DNA of 64,000 bases from Ilumatobacteraceae bacterium (GCA_963719295.1 CAVRBV010000012.1:1764-65763); one strand, 5' to 3'; shown: positions 26,000 through 51,808, numbered from the stretch's first letter. Made by a program: numbers and translations. Notes: a model not told the origin generated them from the letters alone.

Positions 26000-26997
26000 G
26001 CCCGGCCACCACCCCACTGGCGCGGCGGGCGGCGCTCGGCGACCGGTCGCCCGCTGGGACCGCATGCTCGAGATCCGCCGCTTCGAGGACCGCATCAAGG
26101 AGCTCTTCGCCGAGGGTCTGATCCACGGCACGACGCACACATGTCAGGGCCAGGAGGCGGTGTCGGTCGGCCTCGCCACCGCCGTGCCACCGAGCGACCA
26201 CGTGTGCTGCACCTACCGCGGCCACGGCCACGCCTTCGCCCTCGGCATGACGCTCGACTCGGTCCTCGGCGAGATCTCCGGCCGCACGGTCGGCACCATC
26301 GGTGGCGTCGGCGGCTCGATGCACCTGCTCGGAGCGCTCGGTCGGGCTCCTGCCGACCTCGCCATCGTCGGCGCCGGCATGCCGATCGCCTGCGGCGCGG
26401 CGCTGGCGGCACAGGCGCGGGGCACCGACGAGTGCGCGTCGCCATGTTCGGGGACGGCGCCACCAACATCGGTGCCTTCCAGAGGGGCTGAACTTCGCCG
26501 CGATCTGGAAGCTGCCCGGTCGTGTTCATGTGCGAGAACAACCTCTACGGCGAGTACTCCCGCATCGACCTGACGACGCCGGTGACCGACCTCGCCGTCC
26601 GCGCCGCTGGTACGCGATGCCGGGCGCATCGTCGACGGCCAGGAGGTCGACGCCGTGTCGCCGGCGATGGGTCAGGCGGTGGACCGGGCCCGCAACGGCG
26701 GCGGACCGACGTTCTCGAGATGAAGACCTACCGCTATTCCGGGCACTCGCGTCCGACCCGGCGACCTATCGACCACCGGGCGAGCTCGACGAGTGGCTGG
26801 AGCGTGACCCGATCGAGCTGTACCGCCGCCAACTCGTGGCGGCCGGCTCGCTCGACGACGCCGCCGCCGACGCCATGGTCGCCGAGGTCGAGGCCCGGGT
26901 CGAGGAGTGCGTGACCCGCGTGATGGCGAGCGAGCTCGCCACCGTCGCGTCGATGTTCCACAACGTGTACGCCACGCCGGCGGGAGCGTCCGTGTGA
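25996..26997 (+). CDS. TPP-dependent dehydrogenase E1 alpha (frameshifted)
   Basis: IRRFE, GQEA, TYRGHG, GGSMH, FGDGA..ENN TPP motif, TYRYSGHS. Confidence 0.88.
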
Positions 26998-27095
26998 CTG
27001 CGTTCCCCGGCCACGCCATGAACTGCCTGCGCAGTAGCTGGCCGCTCACTCGCTGGCGCTCGCTCGCTCGCATCGGTGGAAGGGTCCACCCGTGA
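26994..27095 (+). repeat. Family B MIRU-like linker, copy 1 (33-codon mini-ORF)
   Basis: GTGA overlaps with the E1 alpha stop and the lipoyl gene start; peptide MTAFPGHAMNCLRSSWPLTRWRSLARIGGRVHP. Confidence 0.85.
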
Positions 27096-27334
27096 GCGAC
27101 CGACCGGTCGTGCTGGCGCGCCTCGGCGACACGGTCGACGAGGTGGTGATCGTCGAGTGGCTGGTCGCCGTCGGCGCCGAGGTGCAGCCCGGCGATCCGC
27201 TCGTCCGGGTCGAGACCGACAAGGTCGAAGTCGACGTCGAGTCGCCGTACGCCGGCACCGTGAGCGCACTCTCGGTGGCCGAGGGCGACGAGGTGCCGAC
27301 GGGTGCGACGCTCTGCGTGATCGCCACCGTGTAG
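27092..27334 (+). CDS. Stand-alone lipoyl-domain protein
   Basis: VETDKVEVDVESPYAG with the lipoylated Lys; 80 aa, clean stop. Confidence 0.9.
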   Translation: MSDRPVVLARLGDTVDEVVIVEWLVAVGAEVQPGDPLVRVETDKVEVDVESPYAGTVSALSVAEGDEVPTGATLCVIATV

Positions 27335-27360
27335 ATGGACGACGCGACCGCACCGCTCGA

Positions 27361-27390
27361 TTGCAAACGTTTCCACCGCTGTGCTACTTT
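27361..27390 (+). promoter_or_regulatory. Housekeeping-type promoter with LacI operator over the -35 box
   Basis: TTGCAA-N18-TACTTT; GCAAACGTTTCC at 27363-27374. Confidence 0.7.
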
Positions 27391-27467
27391 GCACCGATTC
27401 CGGGGCGGCGGCGCCCCATCACGACACACAGTGACCGACACCTACTGATCACGGACTGAGGGGGAAC

Positions 27468-29081
27468 ATGAACGACTCGTTGCACCCGTCGAACGTCACC
27501 CGGCGGCGTTTCCTGGGCACCGCGGCGGCTGTTTCGGCGGCCTCGATCGCCGGGCTGTCGCTCGGCCAGCCGGCGCTGGCCCGCACCACCGCTCACCGGG
27601 GCGGACCACGCGGACGAACCGGGAAACGTCACCAGCGAACGTCGGCGGCAGCCTGAAAGTCGGCATGGACAACGTCGTCACCGCCCTCACGCCGTTCGCC
27701 ATCCAGGGCTACGTCTGGTCGCAGATGCTCGGCTTCATGTTCTACGACTCGCTGGTGAAGAAGTCGGCCGAGGGCAAGCTGGTGCCGTGGCTCGCCACCG
27801 AGTGGGACACCACCGATCCCAACAAGACGATCCTCACGATCCGCGACGGCGTGACCTTCCACGACGGCACGCCGCTCACGGCCGCCGACGTCGCCTACTC
27901 GATCGCCGCGCACGCCGATCCCGACCTGATCGCGTCGACCGCCGGCCGCCCGATCATGACGCCCGACCAGTGGGTGTCGGCCGAGGCGGTCGACGACCTC
28001 ACGGTCGAGGTCAACACCAATGGGCGCGTCGAGTTCCTCGTCGACCCGCAGCCGGTGCTGGTCGTGCCCAACGAGTCGTTCGGCACGATCAACTTCGCCA
28101 ACGAGGAGAACGGCACCGGCCCGTTCACGCTCAAGAGCTTCACCAGCGGCACCGGCGTCGACGGCGTCGCCTACGGGGACTACTGGGACGGTCGACCGCC
28201 GCTCGACGAGCTGTCCTTCGCCTTCTTCGCCGATCCGGCGACCGCCAGCACCGGCTTGCGCAGCGGCCAGGTCGACGGGCTCTACGACGTGCAGCCGAAG
28301 AACCTCGATGCGGTGAGCGACGTGCCCGACACGACGGTGACCGAGGCGGCGACACTCGCCTTCTGGTGGATCATCCAGATGGGCAAGGAGCCGCTCGACA
28401 ACCCCGACGTGCGCCGCGCCCTGCGCTACCTGTTCGACGTCGACGCGATCAACAACGCCGCGGTCCACGGCAAGGGCACCTTCTCGTGGAACCCGTTCAA
28501 CCTGTTCCCCGGCGCCGACGGTCCCGACATCGAGGACATCACCTACGACGTCGACGCGGCCAAGGCGGCGCTCGCCGCCGCCGGCGCCAGCGACATCAGC
28601 CGTGCCGATCCTGTGCATCGCCGGCTACGACGACGGCATCGCCGCCGCCCAGGTGATGCAGCAGTCGTTCCAGGACGCCGGGATCACGTGCGAGGTCGAG
28701 GTGGCCGAGGCGCAGGACTGGCTCAAGCGCACCTACACCGACGGCTCGTGGGAGGGCATCACGATCAACGAAGGGAACCTGCCGTTCCCGAGCAAGAACT
28801 TCTTCGACTACCTCGTCAACCCGTCGACGATCCTCAGCACGTACAAGGATGGTGACGTGGTTCCCGCCGCCGCCGAGCTGTACCGCGAGATCCTGGCGAC
28901 GCCGTTCGACGACCCGGCGATCGACGACCTGCTGCTGCAGGCCCAGCAGATGATCCTCGACGACGCCATCGTCTACACCGGTCTCGGTGCACCGGTGTCG
29001 CTCGTCCTGCCCGACAACCTCACGGGTGTCATCTCGAACGGTTTCGGCGACGTCGAGTGGCGCAAGGCGTCGTTTGCGTGA
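27468..29081 (+). CDS. ABC transporter substrate-binding protein, family 5, Tat signal (frameshifts)
   Basis: TRRRFLG, PWLATEW, RDGVTFHDGTPLTAADV, GTGPF. Confidence 0.88.
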
Positions 29082-30128
29082 CGCTGGCGACGACGGCGCC
29101 CGAGCACCGGCCGTCTCCTGACGCCGGCGCGACGGCGCCGTCGGCCCGCCCTACCGCCTGCCCCGCATCGCCCTCGGCGTCGGTGGCCAGCTCGGCCAGC
29201 TGGCGCTGGTGCTCCTCGCCGTCTCGGCGCTGACGTTCCTGCTGCTCAACGCCCTGCCGGGCAGCGCCGCCGACGCCCGCATCGGCCCGCTCCCCAACTT
29301 CTCCCCCGAGGAGCGGGCCCAGCTCACCGCGACGATCTCCAAGCAGCTCGGCCTCGACCGCTCGCTGCTGTACCAGTACGTCATCTGGGTCAAGGAGGCC
29401 CTCCGTGGCAACTTCGGGCTGACCTACCAGGGCCTGGAGGTGCGCGACGTCGTGGGCGCCCGCCTCGGGGCGACGCTCGAGCTGGGGATCGCCTCGGTCG
29501 CTTTCAGCGTGATCGGCAGCGTGGTGGTGTCGATGCTCGCCTTTCGCTCGCGGTTCCGCGTGGTGCGCGGGCTGCTGCAGGCGTTCACCACCGTGCTGCT
29601 CGTGCTGCCGGCGTTCTGGCTCGGGTTGATGCTCGTGATCGTGTTCGCCGCCGAGCTCGGCTGGCTGCCGTCGGCCGGGTACGTGCCGGTCAGCGACGGC
29701 GTCGGCGAGCACCTGAAGGTGCTGATCCTGCCGATGCTCACCCTCGCCCTGCCGCAGATGGCGTTGTTCTTCCGCTACCTGAACGCCGGTCTGCGTGACA
29801 CCGCGGGCACCCCGTTCGTCACCGCCTCGCGGGCGCGCGGGCTCGGCGAGCGCTCGATCGCCTATCGCCACATCCTTCCCAACGCCGCGTTGCCGACGAT
29901 CACGGTCGTCGGGCTCGTGGTCGGGTCGCTGATCAGTGGCCTCGTGATCGTCGAGTCGGTGTTCAGCTGGCCCGGCCTTGGCCTGCTCCTCGTCGACAGC
30001 GTCAAGACGGAGGACTACAACACGGTCGCCGCGATCGTGCTGATCACCGCCGTGACCTACGTCGTGGTCGCCTTCGTCGTCGACATCCTGTATCGAGTGC
30101 TCACCCGCGCATCAGGCGCGCCGCGTAA
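29078..30128 (+). CDS. ABC transporter permease (DppB-like)
   Basis: LGLDRSL..QY, PAFWLG, SRARGL..IAYRH.LPNA, VESVFSWPGLG. Confidence 0.85.
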
Positions 30129-30130
30129 GC

Positions 30131-31021
30131 GTGCGCCGCGGGGACAGGCGCGTCGTCGGGTCGTCCGGCGCCAGCCGGGGCCGCTCATCGCCGGCGTCGT
30201 GCTGCTGACCCCCTTCCTGTTGTTCTGCATCGTGCCGGGCCTCTTCCGCCGCACGACCCGCTGCGCATCGAGGCCATCCCGCTGGAGGGTCCCTCGCGCA
30301 CGTACTGGCTGGGCACCGACGAGGTGGACGCGACCTGCTCAGCCGCAGCATCTACACGGGCGCGCAACGACGTCCTCGTCAGCCTCGCCTCGGCGTTCAT
30401 CGCCTTCACGCTCGGCACCACGATCGGGCTGTTCTCCGGGTACGTCGGCGGCAAGGTCGACACCGTGATGATCCGCGTCGTCGACGTGCTGCTGTCGTTC
30501 CCGACGATCGTGCTGGCGCTGTTCCTGATCGTCGTGATCGGTCGCGAGCAGTGGGTGCAGGTGCTCGCCATCGCCCTCGTGATGATGCCGTCGATGGCCC
30601 GTTTCAGCCGCGGCACCGGCCTGGTGCTGCGCAACCGTGGGTACGTCGAGGCGGCGCGCCTGGCCGGCGCCGCGGCGCCACGTGCTCCGTCACCACGTGC
30701 TGCCCAACTCGCTGCCGACCCTGCTGGTCGCAGCGAGCGTGCTCGCCGCCAGCGCCGTGCTCATCTCGGCGTCGCTCAGCTACCTCGGCCTCGGCGCCCA
30801 ACCGCCCGATCCGAGCTGGGGAACATGCTGCGCTCGGCGTACGGCGTGGTGTACGAGGCGCCGCTGTTCGGGCTCGGGCCGGGCGTGTGCGTCACGATCG
30901 TCGCCGGCGCCTACATCCTGATCGGCGAGGGCCTGCGCCGCAAGTACCGCGCCGAGGCTACGTCACCCCCGCCGGGGCCCGCGCCGGGACGTTCGCCCCG
31001 GCGGCCGGGAGCCTCGGGTGA
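30131..31021 (+). CDS. ABC transporter permease (DppC-like), frameshifted
   Basis: WLGTD, GYVGGKVD..IRVVD, YVEAARLAG, HVLPN, LSYLGLG. Confidence 0.82.
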
Positions 31022-33093
31022 CGGCGATGCAGGAACAGCAACAGGCGCCGGCCGCGCCATCTCCGGTCGACAACCGCTGGAGATCGCCTCGTTGTCGGTG
31101 AACTATCGCGCCGGCTCGTCGCTCGTGCACGCCCTCGACGGGATCGACCTCACGGTGCCGGCCGGGCACCGCATGGCCGTCGTCGGCGAATCGGGTTCCG
31201 GGAAGACCACGCTCGGCCTCGCCGTGATGGGTCTGCTCCCATCGAACAGCGAGTTCGACTACCGGCGCCTCAGCGTCGGCGGCGTCGACGTCGACCTGCG
31301 CGACGCCAAGCAGATGCGTTCGCTGCGCGGCAACCGGGTGTCGATGGTGTTCCAGGACGCCAAGGCCGCCCTCGACCCGGTGCGCACCATCGGCAGCCAG
31401 CTCAACGAGCCGCTGCGCGTCCACCGCATCGTCGACCGCAAGCAGCGCGACGCCGAGGTCGAGCGGCTGTTGGGCGCCGTCGAGATCCGCCGGCCGGCGC
31501 AGGTGGCCCGGCAGTACCCCCACGAGCTGTCGGGCGGCATGCGCCAGCGGGCGATGATCGCCATGGCCCTCGCCGGGCGGCCGTCGCTGCTGATCGCCGA
31601 CGAGCCCACCAGTGCGCTCGACGTCACCACCCAGGCGACGGTGATCGACCTGATCCGCCGGGTCGGCGACGACGGGTCGATGGCGACGCTGCTGATCACC
31701 CACGACCTCGCCCTCGTCGCCGGCTTCGCCGAGACGGTGACCGTGATGTACGCCGGCGAGATCGTGGAGATCGGTAGCGGTCGACGCGCTCTACTCGGCG
31801 CCCGCCCACCCGTACACCCGCGCCCTGCTCGGCTCGATCCCGGGTCTGTTCGACGACCGGGTCGACGAGCTCGGCAGCATCCCCGGCACGATGCCCGACC
31901 TCACGAAGGCGGCGGTGGGGTGCCGGTTCGAACCGCGCTGTCCGGTCGGGCGGGGGCGCGACCTGTGCCGCACCGTCGCTCCGACGCTCGACGTGAGGCC
32001 CGGACGGGGGTCGGGTGCGCTGTCACTTCGCCGGTGAGATCGCGTCGGGCCCGACGGTCGACGAGGTGCCCGTCGTCCTCACGCGCGGTCGGCGCGATCC
32101 GCGAGCCCGGTCGCCGCGCTGACCGGCATCGTCAAGACCTTCCAGCGCGGAAACTGGGGCCGCGCCGCGCGCACCCGGACCGTCGCCGTCGACGGCGTCG
32201 ATCTGGTGGTGGGTGAAGGCGAGTCGGTGGGGATCGTCGGCGAGTCGGGATCGGGCAAGACCACGCTGGCGCGGGTGTTCGTGGGCCTCGAACGCGCCGA
32301 CTCGGGCGACAAGCGCATCCGCGTCGGCGACGAGCTCGTCGCCACCGCGACGATCCCGAAGGACTACGTGCAGTTCGTCTTCCAGGATCCCGGCGACAGC
32401 CTCGACCCGATGATGTCGGTGGGCGAGATCATCGCCGAGCCGCTGGTGCTGCGCGACGGCGGACGGGCGTCGCGGTACCGCGCCCGGGTCGCCGAACTGC
32501 TGGAGGACGTCGGCCTGCGCGCCGACATGGCCTCACGTCGACCGATGGAGCTGTCGGGCGGCCAACGCCAGCGCGTCGCGATCGCCCGCGCCCTGTCGAC
32601 CCGGCCGAAGGTCATCATCGCCGACGAAGCCGTCGCCTCGCTCGACATGTCGGCGCGTGGTCAGATCCTCAACCTCTTCTCCCGTCTGCAGGCCGAGCAC
32701 GGCTTCGCCTACCTGTACATCTCGCACGACCTGTCGCTGGTGCGCCACGTGTGCGACCGCGTCGTGGTGATGTACGGCGGCCAGGTGATGGAGACCGCGT
32801 CGACCGACGAGCTGTTCGTCGATCCGCGGCATCCCTACACCCAGGCGCTGATCTCGGCGGTGCCGATCCCGGACCCCGCCGCCGAACGGGCCCGGCGGCT
32901 GATGACGATCCGCGGCGAGGTCGGCGAGGGCGCCGCCGAGCAGGGCTGCGCGTTCCGGACGCGGTGCCCGATCGCCCAGGAGCGCTGCGCCGCGGAGCGG
33001 CCGCGGCTCGACCCGCTCGACGCCCACGGCGTCGCCTGCCACTTCGCCGCCGAGGCCGCGGCCCGCTACGTGCGCGCCGGGAGCGCGCCGTGA
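31018..33093 (+). CDS. Dipeptide-type ABC ATP-binding protein with two ATPase domains (single gene or pair)
   Basis: Two GESGSGKT Walker A motifs, LSGGMRQR and LSGGQRQR, HPYT, Cys-rich tails. Confidence 0.88.
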
Positions 33094-33854
33094 GCTGGGA
33101 CCTCGGCTCGGGCCTGGAGGGCCGCGGTGTGATCGTCACCGGCGCGGCGAGCGGCATCGGTCGGGCGACGGCGCAGGCGATGGCGGCCGCCGGCGCACGT
33201 GTCGCCGCCCTCGACCGCGACGCCACCGGACTGGAGACGACGGTCGCCGGCCTCGACGGCGACGGCCACCTCGCCCTGACGTTCGACCTCGCCGACGCCG
33301 GAGCGATCGAGCCGCTCGTGCGATCGGCCGCCGACGGGCTCGGCGACCTATGGGCGCTCGCCCATGTCGCCGCGGTGCTGCGCCGCCAGCGCGTCGAGGA
33401 GGTCACCGAGGCGGATTTCGATCTGCAGACCACCGTCAACCTCAAGGCGACGTTCTTCCTCGACCGCGCCGTCGGGAGCCTGCTCGTCGGACGAGGTGGT
33501 GGCGGACGGATCGTCAACTTCACCTCCGGCGCCTTCCTCACCGGCGCACTGTCGGGGAGCGACGCCTACGTCGCCACCAAGGGCGGCGTCGTGACGATGA
33601 CGCGCAGCTTCGCCAAGCAGTACGGCCGGCACGGGATCACGGTCAACGTGATCTCGCCGGGTCAGATCGACACGCCGATGCAGCACATCGACAATCCGGC
33701 CGAGGTCGTCGAGGCGGCGATCCAGGCGTGTCCGATGCGCCGGATCGGCCAGCCCGAGGAGGTGGCCGCCGCCGTCGTGTTCCTCGCCAGCCGCCATGCC
33801 AGCTTCGTCAACGGCGCCACGCTGACGGTGAGCGGCGGCTCGGTGATGCACTGA
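33090..33854 (+). CDS. SDR-family oxidoreductase
   Basis: TGAASGIG, YVATK, VNVISPG. Confidence 0.9.
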   Translation: MSWDLGSGLEGRGVIVTGAASGIGRATAQAMAAAGARVAALDRDATGLETTVAGLDGDGHLALTFDLADAGAIEPLVRSAADGLGDLWALAHVAAVLRRQRVEEVTEADFDLQTTVNLKATFFLDRAVGSLLVGRGGGGRIVNFTSGAFLTGALSGSDAYVATKGGVVTMTRSFAKQYGRHGITVNVISPGQIDTPMQHIDNPAEVVEAAIQACPMRRIGQPEEVAAAVVFLASRHASFVNGATLTVSGGSVMH

Positions 33855-33864
33855 CGGGATCGCC

Positions 33865-35174: not shown

Positions 35175-35211
35175 GTCGACGACCGGGTGGCACCGGCTGT
35201 CGCACGCGGTG

Positions 35212-35234
35212 TACGGTGGGCTGGAAACGTTCTC
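35212..35234 (+). promoter_or_regulatory. -10 box and LacI-type operator
   Basis: TACGGT at 35212-35217, then GGAAACGTTCTC at 35223-35234. Confidence 0.6.
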
Positions 35235-35254
35235 AGTCCAGTGGAGGGGCGCCG

Positions 35255-36383
35255 ATGGGCAAGATCGCACGGGTCGATCCGATCTCGGTCGAGTATCCCG
35301 AGCCGAACGACAACGGGTCGCTGCGGCGACTGACGCTGTGTCGCATCGAGACCACCGACGGGGTGGTCGGATGGGGCGAGGCGATCACGATGTGGGCCGA
35401 GGCGTGTCGCGCCACGGAGGTGATGATCGAGGGGTTGTCCGACCTGGTGATCGGGCGTGACCCGCTCGACCACGCGGCGATCTCCCACGAGCTCGCCGAG
35501 CGGACCTGGTGGACGGGACCCGAGGGGATCGCCTCGTTCGCCCGCAGTGCGCTCGACATCGCGCTGTGGGACCTGCGCGGCAAGGTCAGCGGTCAGTCGC
35601 TGATCTCGATGCTCGGCGGCGCCCGCCAGCCGCGTGTGCCGGTGATCGCCTCCACGCACGCCTTCCTGCCGAGCCTCGAGGCCGAGGCCGAGCGCCACGC
35701 CAAGTACGTCGCCGAGGGCATGCACGGGTTCAAGATCGGCCTCGGCAAGAAGGGCGACGCCAACGTCGGCTACGACTTCGACCGCGACGTGCTGTTCATG
35801 CGCCTGCTGCGCGAGGCCGCAGGGCCCGACGCCGACATCATGTTCGACCGCGGCCAGCACCTGCGCTGGGACGTGAGCCGCGCCACGCGCACCACCCAGG
35901 CGTGGGAGGAGTACGGGCTGCGGTGGGTCGAGGAGCCGCTCGAGCCGTGGGACGTGCAGGGCTTCCAGCAGCTGCGGCGTCACTGCACGGCGTTGATCGC
36001 CACCGGCGAACGCTGCTGGACCACCGAGCAGTACCACCGCCTGATCGCCACCGGCATCGTCGACGTCATCGGCTGCGACCCCGGTCGTGCCGGGGGCATC
36101 ACCGGCTTCCGCGAGCTGATCAACGCCGTCGAGCACGCCCAGCTCTGGTTCAACGCCCACGCCTGGAGCAGCGCCATCGTCACCGCCGCGAGCCTCGCGT
36201 TGTCGGCGTCCTCGCCGCGGCTGCCTGCTCTTCGAGCTGAAGCCGCTGGACAACCCGATGCAGAACGAGCTCGTCACCGAGCCGTTCTGGCACGAGGGCG
36301 GGTTCATCTCGCCCCCGGACAAGCCAGGACTCGGGATCGAGGTGATCGAGTCGGTGGTCGACCGCTACCGGATCACGTGGTGA
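35255..36383 (+). CDS. Second mandelate racemase/MLE-family enzyme (frameshift at about 36220)
   Basis: GWGE, LDIALWDL.GK, FKIG, WVEEP, TGE, PGLGIE. Confidence 0.88.
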
Positions 36384-36405
36384 ACGTGATTGCGCGGGGT
36401 CCCGC

Positions 36406-36507
36406 GTGACCGTCATTGCGTTCCCCGGCCACGCAGGCCGCCCCCCAGGCTGGCCGCTCACTCGCTGGCGCTCGCTCGCTCGCACGCTCGGACGAGGTCC
36501 GGCGTGA
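36406..36507 (+). repeat. Family B MIRU-like linker, copy 2 (33-codon mini-ORF)
   Basis: Peptide MTVIAFPGHAGRPPGWPLTRWRSLARTLGRGPA; GTGA overlap at both ends. Confidence 0.85.
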
Positions 36508-37356
36508 CCGTCAAGCTGTCGTGCGCCGACTACGGCTGGCCGTCGGTGAGCCACCGCACGGCGCTGGCGATCGTGGGCGATCTCGGATTCGCCGGCGTCG
36601 ACATCGGCGTGTTCGGTGACGCCACCCACGTGACCGTGCCGTCGGTCGTCGCCGACCCGGCCGGCCGCGCCGCCGCGGTGGGTGCCGACGTGCGGGCCGC
36701 CGGACTCGCCGTCGCCGACGTGTTCCTCACCTCGGTGCTCGAGGTCGACCGGGTCACGCCGACCAGTCGCACCGGAGACGACCAGGAGCAGCTGCAGGCG
36801 ATCTTCCGGGCGATGGTGGAGTTCGCCGGGGCCCTCGAGGCGCCGGGGATCACGCTGCTCCCGGGAGTGGTCGCCGACGGCCAGTCGCTGTCGGAGGCGC
36901 TCGACGCGTCGGCCGCCGGGCTGGCGCCGCTGGTGGCCATGGGTGCCGACGCCGGGCTCGGCGTGTCGGTCGAGCCCCACGTGGGGTCGGTGGTGGAGTC
37001 CCCCGAGGCCACGGCCGAGCTGCTCGACCGGTGTCCGGGACTCACGATCACCCTCGACCCGTCGCACTTCGTCTACGCCGGCTGGACGGTACCGACCATG
37101 CTGGGCCTGCTCGCCCGCACACGCCACGTCCAGATCCGCCCCGGCGCCGACGGCGTGATGCAGGCCAAGGTGCGCGACAACGGCTTCGACCTGGAGCTGC
37201 TCGTGCGCAGCCTGCTCGAGCAGGGGTACGACGGCTGGATCGCCAGCGAGTACGTGTGGATGGAGAAGTGGCGGTGCGACGAGGTGGACAACACGGGGGA
37301 GTCGGGCCGGCTGCGCGCCCTGCTCGAGTCGCTGCTGATGGTCGGTGTGCCAGTGA
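36504..37356 (+). CDS. Sugar phosphate isomerase/epimerase (AP endonuclease 2-type TIM barrel); reads in frame into the next gene
   Basis: VEPHVGS, TLDPSHF, HVQIR, GYDGWIASEY. Confidence 0.8.
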
Positions 37357-38417
37357 GCGATCGAGTGCGCGTCGGGGTGATCGGGGCCGGCGTGTGGGCC
37401 CAGGTGTCGCACATCCCGGCGCTCGCCGCACGCGGTGACGAGGTCGAGCTGGTGGCGGTGTGCCGCAAGGGTCCCGACGAGCTGGCGAAGGTGGCCGAGC
37501 AGTTCGGCTTCCCGATCGCCAGCGAGGACTACCGCGACGTGCTCGACGCCGGCGTCGACGTGTGCGTCGTGTCGAGCCCGGTCTCGCTGCACCACGAGCA
37601 CGCCCTGGCGGCGCTCGACGCCGGCGCCCACGTGTTGATCGAGAAGCCGGTCACCATCGATCCCGCCGACGCGTGGGAGCTCGTGCGCCGCGCCGACGAG
37701 CTCGACCGGCACGTGGTGGTCGCCTTCGGCTGGAACCACCTGCCGACGTTCGCTCGCGCCAGCGAGCTCTGGGCCCAGGGCGGGGTCGGCAACGTCGAGC
37801 ACGTCATGGTGCACATGGCGTCGGGCACCCGACAGCTGCTCGACGGCTCGTCGTTGTACTCGGCCGGACCCACCGACCCGGTCGTCGATACCCGCACGTG
37901 GACGGACCCGGCGATGTCGGGCGGCGGCTACGCCCAGGCGCAGTTGTCGCACATCCTCGGATGGGCGCTCGGCGTCACCGGCCTTCGCGCCGACAGCGTG
38001 TATGCCCTCGGGTTCCGCCCGCCCCACGCCAACGTCGAACTGCACGACGCGATGGCGATCCGCTTCGCCGGCGGTGCCACCGGCGCGGTGAGCGGGGCGT
38101 CGTTCCACAGCGGCAGCCAGGCCGACCGCCACCAGTACGAGATCCGCGTGTTCGGTGACGAGGGTCAGCTCCACGCCGACCTCGAGCGCGACCGGTTGTG
38201 GTGGTGGCGCGCCGATCGCGGCGGCGAGGACATCCCGCTGCCGGTGGACGCCGGTGCCTACCACTGCGTCGGTCCTGTCGACACGATCGTCGATCTCGCC
38301 CTCGGGCGCGACGTGGTGAACCGCTCGCCGATCGAGCTCGGTGCCCGCACGGTCGACGTGCTGGCGGCCGCCTACCGCAGCATGGCGTCGGGCGGGCCCG
38401 AAAGGGTGGGCCGGTGA
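37353..38417 (+). CDS. Gfo/Idh/MocA oxidoreductase
   Basis: VGVIGAG, HVLIEKP, SGGG. Confidence 0.88.
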   Translation: MSDRVRVGVIGAGVWAQVSHIPALAARGDEVELVAVCRKGPDELAKVAEQFGFPIASEDYRDVLDAGVDVCVVSSPVSLHHEHALAALDAGAHVLIEKPVTIDPADAWELVRRADELDRHVVVAFGWNHLPTFARASELWAQGGVGNVEHVMVHMASGTRQLLDGSSLYSAGPTDPVVDTRTWTDPAMSGGGYAQAQLSHILGWALGVTGLRADSVYALGFRPPHANVELHDAMAIRFAGGATGAVSGASFHSGSQADRHQYEIRVFGDEGQLHADLERDRLWWWRADRGGEDIPLPVDAGAYHCVGPVDTIVDLALGRDVVNRSPIELGARTVDVLAAAYRSMASGGPERVGR

Positions 38418-41953: not shown

Positions 41954-42923
41954 ATGGACGATGCGGTGTTCCGCGGTGCATGCCCGCGCTGATGACGCCC
42001 TGCGACGAGCGCGGCGCGGTCGACCATGACGCGCTCGTCGCAACGGCGACGCGCCTGGTCGACGGCGGGATGAGCGGCGTCGTGTACTGCGGGTCGATGG
42101 GGGACTGGCCGCTGCTGTCGGACGAGCAGCGGTGCACGGGGGTCGAGCGACTCGTCGCCGCCGGCGTGCCGGTGGTGGTCGGCACCGGTGCGCAGAGCCC
42201 GGCGCGCGCGGCGGCACTGGCCGCCCACGCCGCTGCTGTCGGCGCGGCGGGGCTGATGGTGATCCCGCGCGGTGCTGTCGCGGGCCGTGTCCCCGGCCGC
42301 CCAGCACGCTCACTTCGAAGGTGTGCTCGCCGCCGCGCCGGGCCTGCCGTGCGTGATCTACAACAGCCCGTACTACGGCTTCGAGACGCGCTGCCGACCT
42401 GTTCTTCCGCCTGCGCGACGACCACCCCAACCTCGTCGGCTACAAGGAGTTCGGCGGGGCCGCCTCGCTGACCTACGCCGCCGAGCACATCACGTCGGGT
42501 GCGGACGACCTCGTGCTCCTCGTCGGGGTCGACACGCAGGTGGTGCACGGGATCGTCGGCTGCGGCGCCCACGGCGTGATCACCGGCGTCGGCAACGTGC
42601 TGCCCGGGCCGGTGCTGGAGCTGGTGCGCCTCGCCCGCGCCGCGGCGGACGGCGACCCGGTGGCCGAGCGGCGGGCCCGCGAGCTCGACGCCGCCCTCGG
42701 CCCACTGTCGGCCTTCGACGAAGGTCCCGACCTCACGCTGTACTACCGCCACCTCGCCGTGCTCGCCGGCCACGACGAGTACGCCCTGACCCTCGAGCGG
42801 ACCGATCGCCTGAGCGACAGCCAGCGCGCCCACGCCACGCTGCAGTGGGAGCGCTTCGGGCGCTGGTGGTCGCAGTGGTGCGACGCCGATCAGCCGGCGT
42901 CGGCGACCGCCGCGCTCGTGTAG
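41954..42923 (+). CDS. DapA-family enzyme, probable pyrroline-4-hydroxy-2-carboxylate deaminase (frameshifts)
   Basis: MPALMTP, GSMGDW, IYNSPYYG, GYKEFGG; AGGAGG RBS; gene context. Confidence 0.8.
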
Positions 42924-44332: not shown

Positions 44333-47090
44333 CGTGGCCTCCTTCGGTCCTGTCGAGTTCTGCTCGTGGCGTCCGACGGGCGAGCGTCGCCGTTCGCTCC
44401 TGTTGATAGCGGCAGCCGGCCGATCCGAAGCGGTCGGCGATGCCGGCGAGCTCTCCGCGCCGACCGTCGTGCAGGGCGGCGGCGCGATCGACGATGGCGA
44501 CGGCGATGCCGTTGCCGCGGATGTAGGCGAACGCCCGCTCGAACCGGGCGCCGGCATCCGGGCGACCGGCGAGCACGCCCGCCTCGACCCAGGCGGCCGC
44601 GTACCACGACGCCCAGAGCGGGGCGGTCGGGTCCGTGCTGAAGGTGTCCGGCGCCGGCGCGGCGCCAGGTGTCGCACGCCGACACGGGGTCGTCGAGGTG
44701 GAGGGCGAGCAGGGCGTCGAAGGTGGCCCGCCAGATGACGTGCTTGCCGTCGAACCGGTCCGGCGACGGGACCAGGCCCCGCGTGATCCCGATCCACCGG
44801 TCGCGAGCCGAGGGATCGCCGATCATCCCGAACACCGTCGCCGCCGCGTACGCGCCCACGGCGAGGTTGCCGGCCACCGGCTGGCCGGAGCGATACCAGT
44901 CGCGTTCGAACGGCGCCGCCGCCTCGACGACCGCGTCGAACTCACCGGCGAGCGCGTCGACCTCGATCACGCGACCGAGCGCGATGTGGCGCTGCTCCCG
45001 AAAGTAGGGGAGGGCGGCGACGGCGCGGGCGTAGCGGCGAGCGTCGGCGAGCTGACCGACCGCCAGCTCGAGGAGGCACGCCATGTGCACGGCGTCGTAG
45101 TGGGCGAACCCGCTGGCGGCCGCGACCGGCACCGCGGCAAGCGCGTCCAGCCGAGGGACGACCAGGGCGGCCGCTGCGTCGAGGTCGAAGGCGTCCAGCG
45201 CCAGCGCCATCAGCTGGTCGAACACCTCGTCGACGAGCAGCGCATCGCCGGCCTCGACGGCGAGGCCGACGAGCACGCTCGGTGTGCCGGCGCGAGCGAG
45301 CGTGCGCTCCCGGCGCCCACCCGGCGGCGACGGCGATGGCGGCCTCGGCGGCCGCCGCACCCGTCGACAGCGTCCGCGCCTCGTCGAGCAACCGCTCGAC
45401 CGACGCCACGTCCTTGGCCCGCTTGATGATCCCGGACGCCCGGAACTCGAGGGCGGCGGCGCCAGCGAGGTCACCGGCGGCGTCGTCGGGCCGCCCGGCG
45501 GCGAGGGCGACCCGGGCCGACTCGACCAGCAGGTCGACGGTGTCGCCGCCGACGTTGCGTGCGGCCGCGGCGCCGGCGGCCAAGCGCAGCCACCGGCAGC
45601 GATCGGCGGGGTCGTCGGCCAGCGTCGCCGCATCCTGGTACCGGCGCTGGGCCTCGCCGGGATGACCACGCTGGAAGAGCACGTCGGCGGCGACGCCGGC
45701 GAGGGCGACGGCCTGGTCACGTGACCCTGAGCGGAGGCGCACCCACGCCAGCGCGGCGCGGGCATCGTCGAGCGTGGCGTCCACCTCGGCGCACCACTGC
45801 TCGTCTCCCGGCGCCCGTTCCGACAGGTCGTCGAGGCGTCGTTGGCACCAGGCGACGTGGGCCTCGTGAAGTGCCTCGGTCTCGCCCTCGAGCTCGGCGG
45901 CGTACTGGCGGATCGTCTCCAGCACCCGGTAGCGGGCGGGTGGTCCGGGCTCGAGCGCCGCGAGGTTCCAGTCGACGAGACCGCCGAGCGCGGCGACGAC
46001 CGCTCCCGGCGGGCGGCCGCTCACGGCGCTGACCGCGTCGAGGTCCGGCGGGGCGGCGAACACCGACGCCGCACGCAGCACGGCGCGCTGGTCGGCTTCC
46101 AGCAGGGCGTAGCTCCAGTCGATCGCGGCGCGGAGCGAGCGGTGACGTTCCTGCGCCCGCGGGCCGACGTCGAGCAGGAGGAGCCGGGAGCCGAGCGCTC
46201 CGGCCAGGCCGGTCACCCCGAGGCTGGGCACCCGCGCCCGCGGCGAGCTCGATCCCGAGCGCCATGCCGTCGAGCGCAGCGCAGATCGCGCCGATCGCGG
46301 CGAGGTCGGCCGGTTGCGGCGGGGCGGCGCCGGCGGCGATCATCCGCTCCACGAACAGCGCCTCGGCGTCGCTCGCGCCCTCCGGCGTGCCGAGCGACAG
46401 GCCGGGCACCGACACCACGTGCTCGAACGGCAGCATCAGTCGCAGCCGGCTGGTCGCCAGCACGCGCAGCGACGGGCAGTCGTCGAGCAGTCGTTCGATC
46501 CACGTGCGCGCCGCATCCTGGACGTGCTCGCGGTTGTCGACCACCAGGAGGCAGGTCCGCGGCCCGAGCGCACCGACGAGCGCCTCGGCGCGGGTCGTCG
46601 TCGAGGTCTCGGGCACGGCGGCGGCCGTCGCGATGGCGTCGACCACGGCGTCGGGCTGGGTCACCTTGACCAGGTCGACGAACACCACGCCGTCGGGCAC
46701 GTCATCGGCGACATCGGCCGCCGCCGCCAGCGCGAGGCGCGTCTTGCCCACACCACCCGGGCCGGTTGCGGTCACCAGCCGGTGGTCGCGGAACGCGGCC
46801 ACCAGCTCGGCACGCTCGACCGTTCGTCCGACGAACGTCGTGAGCGGGATGGGCAGCGCGCCGCGACGGTCGACGGTCGGACGGTCGGGCGCCGAGCCAC
46901 GGGCGAGCGCCCGCCGGTCGCTGGCGCCGAGCTTGCGCAGCAGCGCCGATACGTGGGTCTCGACCGTGCGCACCGAGACGAACAGCCGGTCGGCGATCTC
47001 GGCGTTCGTCAGTCGTTCCCGCACGAGGACGAGCACCTCGGTCTCGCGCGCGGTCAGCGCGGCGAGGCGCGGCTTCGCCGGGGCGGGCAC
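44310..47090 (-). CDS. Regulator with N-terminal LuxR HTH, NB-ARC-like ATPase and helical repeats (frameshifts)
   Basis: LTARETEVL..TNAEIA..VSVRTVETHVS, GPGGVGKT, RHRSLRAAIDWSY, YRVLETIRQY. Confidence 0.82.
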
Positions 47091-47264
47091 GGACGCGAGT
47101 CTGGCAGTCCAGCGTGCGGGAAGCCGATGGCGCCGACGTCGATCTCCGTAGTGGGCACCGAGGCTGAAACCCGTCGTCGCCACGGATGCGCCAGGACCGG
47201 CGCGCGCCGACACTGCCAGTGACATCCATCACACCCGTTCATTTCCACCCTCGGAGGTACTGCC

Positions 47265-47828
47265 ATGACCATGACCGCACGACCGGCGCGCAACGGCGTC
47301 GACGTCCCCACCGTGTTCGCCACGCTCGACGCCGTGAGGGACACGCCTGAGATCGCCCAGGTCCAGTTCCGGGCGACCAACCGGTGGGTCGGGGGCGCCC
47401 ACAGCCGCTCGACGATCCACGACTTCCACGGCGCGATGCAGGAGATGACCCACCCCGAGCCGCGCACGTACGACGCCGACCACCCCGCGGTGCTCGTCGG
47501 CGCCGACAACGGACCGACGCCCGTCGAGTACCTGCTCCACGCGTCGGCTGCGTGCATCACCGCCGGCATCGCCAACATCGCCGCCTGTCGCGGGGTGGAC
47601 ATCGACGAGGTGAGCAGCACGGTCGAGGGGGACATCGACCTGATGGGCCGGCTCGGGCTGGACCGACCGTCCGCAACGGCTTCCAGAAGGTGTCGGTGAA
47701 GCTCGCGCTCGCGCGGCGCCGACCCGGAGGCGCTGCGACGCGTGGTCGAGCAGTCGTGTGCCCGTTCGGCGGTGCTCGACGTCATGACCAACGGTGTGCC
47801 GGTGTCGATCGAGGTCGACGCCGCCTGA
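47265..47828 (+). CDS. OsmC-family protein (frameshifts near 3' end)
   Basis: NGVDV, ADHPAVL.G.DNGPTPVE.LL...AAC, VEGDIDL. Confidence 0.85.
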
Positions 47829-47846
47829 GGCCTGCTCGGCACCGGC

Positions 47847-47887
47847 GTGTTCCGTGTGCCGGCCTTTGGCGCCGGCGCACGGAACAC
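47847..47887 (+). terminator. Hairpin downstream of the OsmC gene
   Basis: GTGTTCCGTGTGCCGGC / GCCGGCGCACGGAACAC stem. Confidence 0.5.
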
Positions 47888-47899
47888 ATCAGCTCGAGA

Positions 47900-49131
47900 C
47901 CCGCACCGTGCACCACCCTCCCACCACGCCGCCCCGGCCACCGCCCGACGCACGGCCCCGCGCCTCGTCCGGCCCACGACGTGGTCGTCGTCGGCGCCCG
48001 CCGCCGGCGCCTCGACCGCCATGCTCCTCGCCCGCGCCGGACTGTCGGTGCTGCTGGTCGACCGCGACCGACCGGGTACCGACACCCTGTCGACGCACGC
48101 GCTGATGCGCGGTGGCGTGGTCCAGCTCGACCGGTGGGGTCTCCTTGACCGGATCGTGGCCGCCGGAACCCCGCCGGTGCGCCGCACGACATTCCGCTAT
48201 CGCGACGGCGACGTGGCCGTGGCGATCAAGCCCTCCGCCGGCGTCGATGCGCTGTACGCCCCGCGCCGGACGGCGCTCGATCCACTGCTCGTCGAGGCCG
48301 CCCGCGCCCACGGTGTCAGCGTCCGCTTCGGCGTCGCCGTGACGGGGGTGTGTCGCGATTCGCTCGGCCGCGTCGTCGGGATCGAGACGCGCGACCCGCG
48401 ACGGCCGCCCCGCGACCGTGCGCGCTCGTCTGGTCGTCGGCGCCGACGGACGCCGCTCGACGATCGCCCGGGAGGTCGCCGCGCCGACCACCAACCGCGG
48501 CCTGCACACGAGCGCATTCGTGTACGGATACTGGTCGGATCTCCCCACCGACGGCCACGAGTGGGCGTACCGACCCGGAGCGACGGCCGGCTTCATCCCG
48601 ACCAACGACCGTACGACATGTGTGTTCGCCGGCGGCCCGCCCGCCCTCGTCGGCCGCGGTGGACGTGGGGTCCTCGACGAGCTGGTCGAGTGGTCCTCGC
48701 CCGAGATGGCCGAACGCCTGCGTGCCGCCACGGCGCCACCGTCGACGTGCACGTTCACCGGCCAACCCGGCTACCTCCGCCGCCCGTGGGGAGCGGGGTG
48801 GGCGCTCGTCGGCGACGCCGGGTCGTGGAAGGACCCGGTGAGCGCCCACGGGCTGACCGACGCCCTGCGCGACGCCGAGCTGCTCGCCCGCGCCGTCGTT
48901 GCCGTGCACCGGGGCGAGGCGACGGAGCCGGAGGCCTACGCGGAGTACGAGGCGACGCGCGACCGCCTGTCGGCTCCGATCCTCGTCGCCGCCGACGAGG
49001 TGGCCGCGTTCGGCTGGGACGAGGGCCGGATCGTCGAACTACTGCTCGACCTCAGCGAGGCCATGGGTCGCGAGCTCGAGGTCATCAACGGCCTCCGGGA
49101 GACCGCTTCCAGCCCTTGCTCGACGGCGTGA
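47900..49131 (+). CDS. FAD-dependent oxidoreductase/monooxygenase (start approximate, frameshifts)
   Basis: DVVVVGAR, DTLSTHAL, APRRTALD, VVGADG, GWALVGDAG. Confidence 0.82.
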
Positions 49132-49145
49132 CGCCGGAAAGGGTC

Positions 49146-49193
49146 GATCTGGTCACCCACGTTCTCGATATCGAGAATCTCGGTGACCAGATC
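49146..49193. repeat. Family A REP-like palindrome, copy 6
   Basis: GATCTGGTCACCCACGTTCTCGATATCGAGAATCTCGGTGACCAGATC between convergent genes. Confidence 0.9.
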
Positions 49194-49866
49194 GGGCTGC
49201 CCTCGCGCGGATCAGCTCCAGCGCGGCCGGCCAGACCAGGGCGAGGCCGGTGCCGATGGCGGCGCCGGCGACCACGTCGCTCGCCCAGTGCGCCGCCAGG
49301 TACGTACGAGCCATCGCCATCGTCGCCGCGAACAGCGCTGCTGCCACCGTCCACCGGGTCCGCCGTCGACCGGGTGGCACCAGCACCACCACCAGGGCGA
49401 GCGCGGTGACGGACGCCGCGATCGCGTGCCCCGACGGGAACGACGCCGAGTTGGTGTCGATCAGCGGATCGGGAGGCCGGGGTCGGTCGATCAGCGCCTT
49501 CAACGGCCCGATGCACAGCTCGGACGTGACGACGGCGCCGAGGAACGCTGCCGCCTGCAGCCAGCGTCGGCGGACGGCGAGCACCGCGAGGATCGCCAGG
49601 CGCAGCGGCACCATCACGACCACACTTCCGAGGAAGCTCACCGCTTTGGCCAGGTCGGTCAACCACGCCGTCCGGATGTCGATCATCCAAGCGAGCCAGC
49701 GATCGTCCGGTGGTTGCAGGATCGAGCCGGTGGGGTCGAGCCCCAAGACGATCGACATCGACGTCGCGATCGCCAGCAGGACGAGGCCGATGACGATGGC
49801 GTGGACCCGACGATGGAACATCGACGTCTCCTCCGGCGCCGACGCGGCCGGGGGCTCGCTGCTCAT
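49153..49866 (-). CDS. PAP2-family phosphatase
   Basis: KALIDRPRP, SFPSGH, ARTYLAAHWASD. Confidence 0.88.
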   Translation of the reverse strand: MSSEPPAASAPEETSMFHRRVHAIVIGLVLLAIATSMSIVLGLDPTGSILQPPDDRWLAWMIDIRTAWLTDLAKAVSFLGSVVVMVPLRLAILAVLAVRRRWLQAAAFLGAVVTSELCIGPLKALIDRPRPPDPLIDTNSASFPSGHAIAASVTALALVVVLVPPGRRRTRWTVAAALFAATMAMARTYLAAHWASDVVAGAAIGTGLALVWPAALELIRARAARSGHRDSRYRERG

Positions 49867-50036
49867 CGCGCCCCAGCCTGGCCCAAAGCGGGGTGCACAC
49901 GCTGATGTGGCCGATCGCGACGGCCGGGTTCGACACGCCGGCGCATCGGGACCCAGCATGACGACTCGTGCTGACACCGGCCTGAGGTGGCGGTCGGCCT
50001 CAGGACGGCCTCAGCGCCGGGGCGCACGATGTCAGC

Positions 50037-51626
50037 ATGGGTGGGTCGTTGCCGTCCGCTCGAACGAACCGGGACGTAACCGCGCTCCTGGGGGGGCTGG
50101 CCGTGCTCGCCCTGGGAATGCTCGCCGTCCGTCACGGTCGCGTCTCGGGCGCCGAGAAGTGGTCGTTCCACCGCATCAACGATCTGCCCGGATGGCTGTA
50201 CGGCGTGGCGTGGCCGCTGCAACAGATCGGCGCGCTGGCGGTGGGGCTGATCGTCGCGATCGTCGCCTTGGTGATGCACCGGCGGCGCCTCGCGATCGCC
50301 GCGCTCCTGGTCACGGTGCTCAAGCTCGTGTCCGAGCGGGGAGTCAAGGCGGTCGTCAGCCGGCAACGACCCGGTACGTCGATCGGTGCGGACGTGACCC
50401 TACGGGGCGACGTGCCGCTCGCCGGCGAGAGCTTCGTCTCCGGTCACGCCGTGCTCGTGGCCGGGCTGGCCGGGGTGATCGCGCCGTTCCTGCCCGGCCG
50501 GTGGCGCCTGGTGCCGTGGGCGGTCGTGCTCGGCGTGATGATCGGTCGGGTCTACGTCGGCGCCCACAACCCGCTCGACGTCGTGTGCGGAGCGGCGCTC
50601 GGGGTCGCCATCGCCGCCATCGTGCGCCTGGCCCTCGGCATCGGCAGCTCCGCACGGGGGTCGGCCACCGCGGAAGTCGAAAGCGGTTCGGTGGTCGCGC
50701 CGCCGACGGGCACGACGCACCTGGCGCGAGCGGTCGTGGTCGGCGTGCTGGCGTTGCACGCGCTGGCGGCCGTTCCGGTGGGCGCGGCATCGGCCGGCTC
50801 GCCCAGCACGCTCGACGACGACACCGTCACGGTCGCCTCGTTCGACTTCGCCGAGAGTCGCGTGCTCGCCGAGGTCTACAGCCAGGCGCTGGAGGCGGCC
50901 GGGTTCACCGTGCGGCGTGCGTACGGGCTCGGGCCGCGTGAGTTCGTCGGCCCGGCGCTCGACGCCGGTCTGGTGGAGCTGGTGCCGGAGTACGCCGGCA
51001 CGGCCGCCGAGTTCTACAGCGTCGGTGTCGCCGAGCCCGACGACGACGTCACTGCCACGCACGATCAGCTCGTGGCCGCGCTCGCCGGTGATCCCATCGT
51101 TGCCCTCGCGCCGGCGCCGGCGCAGGACGCCAACACGTTCGTGGTCACACGGACGACGGCCGAACGATTCCACGTGACCACCCTCAGCGATCTGGCCCAC
51201 GTCCACGCCCGGCTCACACTCGGTGGTCCGCCTGAATGCCCAGCTCGTCCGCTATGCCTCGTCGGCCTCGACGACGTGTACGGGCTGTCCTTCGACAGCT
51301 TCCTCGGCCTCGACGCCGGCGGGCCGCTCACGGTGCAAGCGTTGCGCGAGGGTCACATCGACGTCGGCCTGTTGTTCACCACCGATCCGATCCTCGACGA
51401 CCCGGACTTCGTCGAGCTCGCCGACGATCGCCGGTTGCAGCCGGCCGAGAACGTCACGCCCTTGATCCGCTCCGAGCTGGTCGATCGGTGGGGCGTCGAG
51501 ATCACCGATGTCGTCGACGCGGCGTCGGAGCGGTTGACGACCGAGGCCGTTCGCGGCCTGAACCGAGAGCTCGTGGACGACTCCTCCGTCGCCTCGGTCG
51601 TCGCAGCCTGGTTGGCGGGCGAATGA
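50037..51626 (+). CDS. PAP2 phosphatase fused to an OpuAC/glycine betaine-type substrate-binding domain
   Basis: N-term RQRP, SFVSGH, GRVYVGAHNPLD; C-term FAESRVLAEVY, PEYAGT, QDANTF, QPAENVTP; single open frame. Confidence 0.8.
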   Translation: MGGSLPSARTNRDVTALLGGLAVLALGMLAVRHGRVSGAEKWSFHRINDLPGWLYGVAWPLQQIGALAVGLIVAIVALVMHRRRLAIAALLVTVLKLVSERGVKAVVSRQRPGTSIGADVTLRGDVPLAGESFVSGHAVLVAGLAGVIAPFLPGRWRLVPWAVVLGVMIGRVYVGAHNPLDVVCGAALGVAIAAIVRLALGIGSSARGSATAEVESGSVVAPPTGTTHLARAVVVGVLALHALAAVPVGAASAGSPSTLDDDTVTVASFDFAESRVLAEVYSQALEAAGFTVRRAYGLGPREFVGPALDAGLVELVPEYAGTAAEFYSVGVAEPDDDVTATHDQLVAALAGDPIVALAPAPAQDANTFVVTRTTAERFHVTTLSDLAHVHARLTLGGPPECPARPLCLVGLDDVYGLSFDSFLGLDAGGPLTVQALREGHIDVGLLFTTDPILDDPDFVELADDRRLQPAENVTPLIRSELVDRWGVEITDVVDAASERLTTEAVRGLNRELVDDSSVASVVAAWLAGE

Positions 51627-51808
51627 CTGCGTTCCCCGGCCACGCAGGCCGTTCACTGCGTTCCCCGGCCACGCAGGCCGTTGCCGGCCGCTCCTCGGCC
51701 GGCGCCTCGTCGCTCGCACACGATCGGGCACTGACCCACCCGGAGCGTGGCTGGCCGCTCCTCGGCTGGCGCCTCGTCGCTCGCACGCAACCGATGGTGC
51801 ACCGATGA
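51623..51808 (+). repeat. Family B MIRU-like linker, copy 3 (expanded, 61-codon mini-ORF)
   Basis: Begins MTAFPGHAG; ATGA overlaps at both ends; internal 29-bp and 67-bp duplications. Confidence 0.85.

Follow-up and report, generated by a model that had tools for sequence, protein, structure and literature searches.

The 64,000-nucleotide window analysed here, the whole stretch of DNA GCA_963719295.1 CAVRBV010000012.1:1764-65763 from an Ilumatobacteraceae bacterium, carries three copies of a short repeat that we call family B. The evidence makes it probable that family B is a mobile repeat, small and non-autonomous, that has been amplified within a single genus of the Acidimicrobiia, that inserts at the start codons of genes and is laid out so that a mini open reading frame (mini-ORF) running from one RTGA to the next bridges the upstream and downstream translation signals, much as in the interspersed repetitive units of mycobacteria (MIRUs). 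A first-pass annotation of the window had already reported three related elements, and all of them are present, with the motif TGCGTTCCCCGGCCACGC (occurring twice in copy 3) and the motif pair GGCCGCTC..CGCTCGCA common to the three. As that annotation had it, each element begins and ends with an RTGA and is free of internal stops, copies 1 and 2 have the same length and both encode AFPGHA and WPLTRWRSLAR, and copy 3 contains two internal duplications, which prove to be exact repeats of 28 nt at period 29 and of 19 nt at period 67 (Table 1).

Family B is abundant and lies mostly between co-directional genes

The assembly studied (hereafter G000) comprises 4.47 Mb in 35 contigs, with a GC content of 71% and a completeness score of about 60%. 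The 17-nt head of the element matches it 214 times with at most one mismatch, against 0 matches for the reversed control pattern; this abundance is not due to chance. Clustering yields about 190 family B loci, 173 of which hold a single head. Gene contexts were taken from a codon-likelihood gene caller written for G000, whose gene starts are approximate. Between co-directional genes, 99 loci are oriented in the sense of the genes and 21 antisense, a split about 7 standard deviations off parity, and the distance from the upstream stop to the head has its mode at 8 nt and that from the tail to the downstream start at 19 nt. A further 22 loci lie within called ORFs in the sense of the ORF, in most cases with the upstream gene reading into them, and 8 lie there antisense; the remainder occupy divergent or convergent gaps. 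Copies are also found antisense at opposite-strand gene starts, at the 3' ends of genes and fused to the upstream ORF. The earlier view of a non-autonomous interspersed element with a MIRU-like architecture is borne out.

The consensus unit is about 80-104 nt long. Its left end reads RTGA-C, optionally followed by CGTCAY, and leads into the head, (T/G)GCGTTCCCCGGCCACGC. The middle is AGGCCG-NNNN-TGGCCG or a version 12 nt longer, with a recurrent hairpin CGGCCA..TGGCCG, and the tail, CTC-xxxx-GC-TGGCGC-xxxx-TCGCTCGCA, reads ..TGGCGC..CGCTCGCA. A linker of about 19 nt, different in every copy and often containing the palindrome GGTGCACC, then runs to the terminal RTGA(C). Units also occur in tandem, in G000 as well as in other genomes. 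One array of seven units in G000 (Table 1) maintains an open frame of about 199 codons from RTGA to RTGA, at a spacing of 597, and resembles a MIRU variable-number tandem repeat (VNTR).

Distribution within the class and recent mobility

Head counts within the genus range from 31 in G002 through 102 in G003, 103 in G001, 194 in G005 and 196 in G007 to the 214 of G000, whereas 300 evenly drawn other genomes of the class hold 0-4 heads each, mostly chance matches with one mismatch. A search of species-representative genomes with an exact 23-mer returned more than 111 stretches with the same architecture. The hosts among the matches listed are nearly all metagenome-assembled genomes (MAGs) of Acidimicrobiia, together with Desertimonas flava, unresolved Actinomycetota and one MAG labelled Alphaproteobacteria; no Mycobacterium record is among them.

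G002, a member of the same genus found by a DNA search of relatives, is 95.5-96.5% identical to G000 and allowed filled and empty sites to be compared. Copy 2 is absent from the orthologous site of G002, where the downstream gene opens at the same GTG. Across five 20-kb regions of G000, which give about 98 kb of synteny, 16-17 family B loci are missing from G002 at clean empty sites and 4-5 are common to both genomes, with one further difference in unit number (L130:802/904) and one partial difference. Empty sites at orthologous operons, which the first-pass annotation had suggested looking for, therefore exist for copy 2 and for about 16 further loci. As judged from these alignments, family B is evidently mobile, and recently so.

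A 106-nt insertion that lacks a B head, at G002:C14:35168-35273, is missing from G000 (L126 about 18860). Within G000, a stretch of ~31 kb occurs twice at ~91% identity (C10:46318-77187 and C15:375-31189), and comparison of these two blocks gave no usable element pairs; further blocks are repeated at 95-99% identity on C26/C3 and C1/C4. Such repeated blocks point either to a bin in which strains or species are mixed or to duplications of large size.

The target is the start codon of the downstream gene

In the G000/G002 pairs the empty sites are gene starts of the form RTGA(C/A/G).., and one of them reads TAA-gcc-ATGACC, so that the upstream stop does not overlap the start. The proposal that the element inserts at RTGA junctions thus holds in that the empty sites of G002 carry RTGA, but the target is the downstream gene's start codon and not the stop/start overlap as such. 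By inspection, the left RTGA is the empty-site sequence in all clean pairs, and the right RTGA often deviates from the empty site in the R or in the next bases. Among 46 canonical copies the R is identical on the two sides in 25, against 22 expected, which amounts to no association, and agreement between left and right at positions +4 to +6 and -1 to -4 is at chance level. Given that the left and right RTGAnnn are independent, the duplication is limited to about TGA(C), and the element itself brings the right RTGA(C). What remains of the suggested duplication of RTGA on insertion is accordingly a short direct repeat, but not a duplicated right RTGA. A 7-nt target duplication (RTGACCG), to which the first empty sites had pointed, was considered and rejected, the variable positions on the two sides being statistically independent.

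Inspection of the consensus ends revealed that the left junction, RTGAC-C-GTCAY, is palindromic and that the ends GTCAYTG..CARTGAC form a 6-7-nt inverted repeat, with the consequence that RTGAC is supplied in either orientation of the element. In antisense copies at opposite-strand starts, the complement of the head, GGGGAACGC, lies at the distance of a Shine-Dalgarno (SD) sequence.

Matches of at least 9 nt between the flanks occur at 10.7% of loci, compared with 3.4% of shuffled pairs, and this excess, confined to a minority of loci, may reflect insertion beside relics of older elements. The apparent duplications vary in length, from 4-7 nt for the shortest to 14-18 nt for the longest, and that of copy 2 measures 18 nt. 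The target of copy 2 was likely itself the 3' relic of an older element, because the empty site already holds an RTGA-mini-ORF-RTGA arrangement with a GGGTCC.. motif like that of a B linker. At L125:16728-16811 (G000 C9) an antisense copy at an opposite-strand gene start is flanked by a 13-14-nt duplication, TCGAACACGtTCAT, which is at odds with a 4-nt model. At the right junctions of L129:785 and L126:10005-10100 the first 2-5 downstream codons differ from the empty allele far above the 4-5% background, and at one altered right junction a loss of 2 nt is compensated 4 nt further on; such altered codons could result from imprecise insertion, repair or assembly error.

A mini-ORF in frame at the modal spacings

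Taken together with the layout of the unit, the junctions lead us to propose the following course of insertion. A family B element would insert, mostly in the orientation of the gene, beside the RTGA(C) formed by the start codon and the first bases of codon 2. The native start and its ribosome-binding site would remain on the left, where they would now open the mini-ORF, and the terminal RTGA(C) of the element would become the new start of the gene. The mini-ORF would stop at the TGA that overlaps this new start, so that ribosomes loaded at the old site would reinitiate there (-4) and the insertion would be nearly neutral for expression, as proposed for MIRUs. Three points here we infer: the mini-ORF would be translated, the downstream gene would be fed by reinitiation, and an enzyme acting in trans would move the element.

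Spacing was analysed in 104 single-head copies with an RTGA on both sides, 71 from G000 and 33 from other genomes. The distance from RTGA to RTGA has its modes at 86, 92, 98 and 104 nt; these are without exception 2 mod 3 and correspond to the combinations of an optional 6-nt piece at the left end and an optional 12-nt piece in the middle; as both pieces are multiples of 3, the mini-ORF is in frame at all four modal spacings. Overall, 68 of these doubly flanked copies keep the frame, and 65 have an open one. Requiring both flanks to score as coding leaves 36 loci of G000, of which 19 are in frame and 17 open.

Several observations weigh against insertion and bridging as we read them. An open RTGA-to-RTGA frame is present at only 41 of the ~173 single-head loci of G000, and antisense, 3'-end and fused copies exist, so the claim that every copy is a coupled bridge does not survive. 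The genome-wide count of flanked open copies proposed in the first-pass annotation gave 71 doubly flanked copies in G000, with modal lengths in frame, but only those 41 open. Moreover, 36 of the 104 doubly flanked copies are out of frame; the third-frame class, which would be harmful (20 copies), is not depleted relative to the class giving in-frame fusions (16 copies); and non-modal lengths are in frame at the chance rate (16/52). In the combined sample from G005 and G007 an RTGA on both sides is found in only 12 of 46 single-head copies (8 of these 12 are in frame, a sample too small to decide). At the right junction of some pairs the 14-18-nt duplications or altered first codons are not explained by a simple 4-nt model, and searches of G000 and its relatives did not find the mobilising enzyme.

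The in-frame design may thus be a property of the master copies, with no sign of selection on frame after insertion. The earlier idea that copies are kept only if coupling is preserved finds no support in the non-modal lengths, a firm judgement being barred by 1-nt indels. The alignment of G000 and G002 has 4.5 short gaps per kb whose lengths are not multiples of 3, including 536 one-base gaps in 140 kb. This density suggests indel errors in one or both assemblies, which may explain the 60% completeness score of G000 and which alone could break roughly a fifth of 100-nt elements. With so many assembly indels, the in-frame share is a lower bound and the conclusion that frame is not selected is a weak one.

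A sister family with the same right end

A second repeat, family A, was retrieved by searching G000 for the GTGCAC..RTGA end and is present in at least 113-156 copies. It opens with RTGA and GCGAGCGAGTCTTCGAGCGAGCGAA.., continues with two GGTGCACC arms around ~35 variable nt, and terminates in GGTGCACC-N-RTGA. The most frequent RTGA-to-RTGA spacing in family A is 104 nt, and the 42 copies out of 66 that keep the frame are open without exception. The right end GGTGCACC-N-RTGA is common to families A and B and the bodies differ, although hybrids of the two exist (for instance on contig C6 of G000, minus strand, offset 60198). One A-like element differs between G000 and G002. From the occurrence of two bodies with one end and one design it can be argued that the design is what lets such elements spread, and the common end suggests that both families may use the same mobilising activity.

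Extending this argument, A and B could represent a superfamily of start-codon-mimicking mobile mini-ORFs. An unrecognised mechanism, operating without a REP-associated tyrosine transposase (RAYT) or a visible parent insertion sequence (IS), would read RTGAC via the common GGTGCACC-N-RTGA end; the elements would differ at ~three quarters of loci between genomes of ~96% identity, and several percent of genes would have been shifted from SD-led to reinitiation-dependent initiation. We advance this broader scheme tentatively, and the odds are against it as a whole. If it were true, the genus would be the best natural system in which to find the enzyme that moves MIRU-type elements.

Other repeats were seen alongside these families. 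IS-like repeats of 1.6-1.9 kb (G000 C21:43490, C22:110913 and C17:90761) have at their flanks a recurrent motif, GGTGACCAGAT.., with the palindrome TTCTCGATATCGAGAA; the motif also occurs beside some B copies. At L127:11090-11452 (G000 C35) a block of ~360 nt consists of GGGGGCTGCGCCCCCCGTGCACCCCCC..-type units of another repeat family, of which G002 has only ~50 nt at the same place.

Alternative explanations

The open frames of the three window copies and of 65 of the 104 doubly flanked copies, together with one synonymous-looking variant (TCG/TCA) among the tail subtypes, could be read as the mark of a small protein gene family in which an AFPGHA...WPLxRWRSLAR peptide, rich in Arg and Trp as the first-pass annotation had considered, is selected for its product. 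We regard this as extremely unlikely. In 40 ungapped short-form copies the substitutions are concentrated in a few stretches, namely the loop of the hairpin, two blocks of 4 nt surrounding TGGCGC, and the linker, and variability by codon position is 0.15, 0.11 and 0.12, without 3-nt periodicity. Copy 3 and the shifted copies, moreover, read identical bases in differing frames, and a selected peptide is therefore improbable. Copies occur in both orientations, and the three mini-ORF peptides have no Pfam match at E<=1. Conservation is at the level of nucleotides, not of codons. A host-maintained cis-acting device, in which the elements are kept to set or regulate translational coupling or the fate of the mRNA by means of hairpins or a protein site, GGTGCACC, at the new start, would agree with a head that is invariant across many genomes, with the GGTGCACC-N-RTGA end common to two families, with the hairpin that copies 1 and 2 have immediately 5' of the new start, and with the weakness of the SD in most linkers (only 25 of 111 contain a canonical SD 4-mer), a weakness that also appears to fit a reliance on termination-reinitiation. 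Such a device is nonetheless improbable: ~three quarters of loci differ between genomes of ~96% identity, the neighbouring genes are functionally unrelated, the linker is different in every copy, many copies are out of frame, and the folding energies of the copies on both strands are no better than those of shuffled sequences (minimum free energy z -1.3 to +0.5). Rfam gave no match in the whole window at the gathering score and none for copy 2 at E<=1.

Explanations that concern the mode of spread were weighed in the same way. An IS-derived MITE (miniature inverted-repeat transposable element), with GTCAYTG...CARTGAC as its terminal inverted repeats, would be moved by cut-and-paste by a DDE transposase encoded elsewhere, perhaps in unassembled sequence, and would leave a very short target duplication beside right-end mimics, the RTGA layout being a by-product filtered by selection. 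The GTCAY/RTGAC symmetry of the ends, a palindromic RTGAC-C-GTCAY junction that resembles abutted ends, and bursts that differ between close relatives all favour such an origin, and at a completeness score of only 60% a parent IS could have been missed in G000. We consider it possible but on the whole unlikely, because the search for an autonomous partner among inverted head pairs in G000 gave no constant spacing, self-BLAST of this incomplete assembly found IS-like repeats of 1.1-1.9 kb but none with B-like ends, the target duplication has no fixed length, and the inverted repeat is very short. Small, GC-rich, abundant intergenic repeats with palindromic pieces also recall the repetitive extragenic palindromes (REPs) and bacterial interspersed mosaic elements (BIMEs) moved by RAYT, a Y1 HUH transposase. 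That comparison is close to refuted, as PF01797 (Y1_Tnp/RAYT) is absent from G000, G002 and G003 and also from G005 (94% complete) and G007 (97% complete), each with more than 190 heads, and is present only in G001 among the genomes tested; beyond the small recurrent hairpin CGGCCA..TGGCCG, a stable REP-type stem-loop is not evident, and REPs are not characterised by so strong an association with start codons. A minisatellite spread solely by slippage or gene conversion, without any transposition-like step, could account for tandem arrays such as that of seven units in G000, the partial duplications of copy 3 and the one-unit difference between G000 and G002, but is very hard to reconcile with about 190 unlinked single-copy sites and with clean empty sites at unrelated genes, and we hold it to be highly unlikely.

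The three copies in the window and their flanking genes

The coordinates of the three elements, of their parts and of the neighbouring genes are collected in Table 1. In copy 3, the middle part is read in another element frame before returning to the common one. The first-pass annotation had placed each copy across the stop and start of co-directional genes. The flanks are indeed real genes, but the racemase frame ends before copy 2 and the gene after copy 3 shifts frame; in all, 3 of the 6 genes that flank the window copies look frameshifted.

Upstream of copy 2 lies a racemase-like gene of the MR_MLE enolase superfamily, whose homology-supported frame terminates at TGA 36381-36383 (..ITW*), short of the element. 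The racemase ORF that reaches 36409 depends on a 1-nt insertion near 36221, relative to G002, which divides the gene into two frames. The stop overlapped by the left GTGA of copy 2 is consequently not that of the racemase's own frame but that of a 9-codon mini-ORF, or of a frameshifted ORF. The empty site in G002 already has a counterpart of this mini-ORF (VSAATQGPA), and the mini-ORF may be a relic of an older element. Downstream of copy 3, the coding signal moves to the +1 frame near 52250, which is the frame of ORF 52319-54019; the change represents a frameshift, an error or a pseudogene. ORF 52319-54019 itself has weak PAP2 and kinase matches.

Table 1 Family B elements and neighbouring features (window coordinates, except the tandem array, given by G000 contig)
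Feature	Position	Strand	Description
Copy 1	26994-27095	+	102 nt; long form with short left end; GTGA at both ends; 33 open codons
Copy 1, upstream ORF	26302-26997	+	C-terminal part of E1 dehydrogenase component (E1_dh)
Copy 1, left GTGA	26994-26997	+	overlaps stop of E1_dh ORF
Copy 1, head GCGTTCCCCGGCCACGC	27000-27016	+	
Copy 1, tail	last base 27072	+	
Copy 1, linker	27073-27091	+	19 nt; contains hairpin GGTGGA-AGGG-TCCACC
Copy 1, right GTGA	27092-27095	+	start of lipoyl-domain gene
Copy 1, downstream gene	27092-27334	+	lipoyl/biotinyl-domain protein
Copy 2	36406-36507	+	102 nt; short form with 6-nt expansion; GTGA at both ends; 33 open codons
9-codon mini-ORF	36380-36409	+	fills the gap from TGA 36381-36383 (racemase stop) to the left GTGA of copy 2
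18-nt direct repeat GGTCCsGCGTGACCGTCA around copy 2	36398-36415 and 36496-36513	+	single in G002 empty site
Copy 2, left GTGA	36406-36409	+	followed by CCGTCATT
Copy 2, head	36418-36434	+	
Copy 2, tail	last base 36484	+	
Copy 2, linker	36485-36503	+	19 nt
Copy 2, right GTGA	36504-36507	+	start of xylose-isomerase-like/GFO gene
Copy 2, downstream gene	36504-38417	+	AP_endonuc_2 + GFO_IDH_MocA (xylose-isomerase-like/GFO fusion)
Copy 3 (composite)	51623-51808	+	186 nt; ATGA at both ends; 61 open codons
Copy 3, upstream gene	50049-51626	+	PAP2 + OpuAC
Copy 3, left ATGA	51623-51626	+	overlaps stop of PAP2+OpuAC ORF
Copy 3, two heads	51629-51645 and 51658-51674	+	period 29
Copy 3, two tails	last bases 51718 and 51785	+	period 67
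Copy 3, linker	51786-51804	+	contains GGTGCACC
Copy 3, right ATGA	51805-51808	+	
Copy 3, downstream ORF	51805-52959	+	opens at right ATGA of copy 3
Tandem array, seven B units of 84 nt	G000 C22:143146-143713		junction GGTGCAC-GTCAC

Significance and comparison with known systems

Family B places the MIRU design in a distant actinobacterial class. What makes it stand out is how active it is, the existence of a sister family and the large number of natural filled/empty pairs. It offers what MIRUs provide only weakly, namely a high copy number, a 7-fold range of copy number between near relatives and many filled/empty allele pairs. Two questions thereby become approachable. One is the identity of the mobiliser, to be sought in gene content that varies along with the bursts; the other is whether the mini-ORF bridge preserves downstream translation. 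There is also a consequence for annotation, since several percent of gene starts lie behind such elements, where start calls and 'hypothetical small ORFs' will be systematically wrong.

A literature search returned no description of family B or of MIRU-like elements in Acidimicrobiia. MIRUs have been described as inserting at start codons and carrying an ORF coupled at -4 (PMC12548453), with tetranucleotide direct repeats and empty and filled sites (PMC3184786); in both accounts the hosts are mycobacteria and the mobilising enzyme is not named. Family B shares with them start-codon insertion, filled and empty sites and a direct repeat of ~4 nt (PMC12548453, PMC3184786). It also resembles the dispersed repeat of 40-100 nt, located in operons and oriented with the genes, of Supply et al. 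1997 (as summarised in PMC12548453 and PMC3184786), it contains an ORF that overlaps the adjacent stop at one end and the adjacent start at the other (RTGA, -4), in a subset of copies only, and it forms tandem arrays with VNTR behaviour. The host class, Acidimicrobiia, is different, as is, so far as tested, the sequence family, and family B is filed as MIRU-like and not as a MIRU. It differs further in a much higher copy number (214 heads, from an incomplete genome, compared with about 40-50 loci for MIRUs), in a very high turnover between near relatives, in occurring also antisense at starts and at the 3' ends of genes, and in sharing its 3' module with a second family.

Other small repeats are similar in single respects. 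The Neisseria REP2 repeats, the Borrelia repeats that carry a ribosome-binding site and ATG, and the Correia/NEMIS MITEs donate translation-initiation signals to an adjacent gene (PMC3184786), as family B would; they differ in lying upstream of genes, in carrying promoters and clear inverted repeats, and in having no coupled RTGA-to-RTGA mini-ORF (PMC3184786). In abundance, small size and GC-richness family B is like the REP/BIME and the Rickettsia palindromic elements (PMC10969869), although, unlike with REP/BIME, no RAYT gene was found with it in G000, G002, G003, G005 or G007. The Rickettsia elements likewise survive by staying in frame, but they do so as in-frame protein segments inside ORFs and not at start codons (PMC10969869). 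The layout of family B matches that of MIRUs feature by feature, except for the host and, as far as tested, the sequence.

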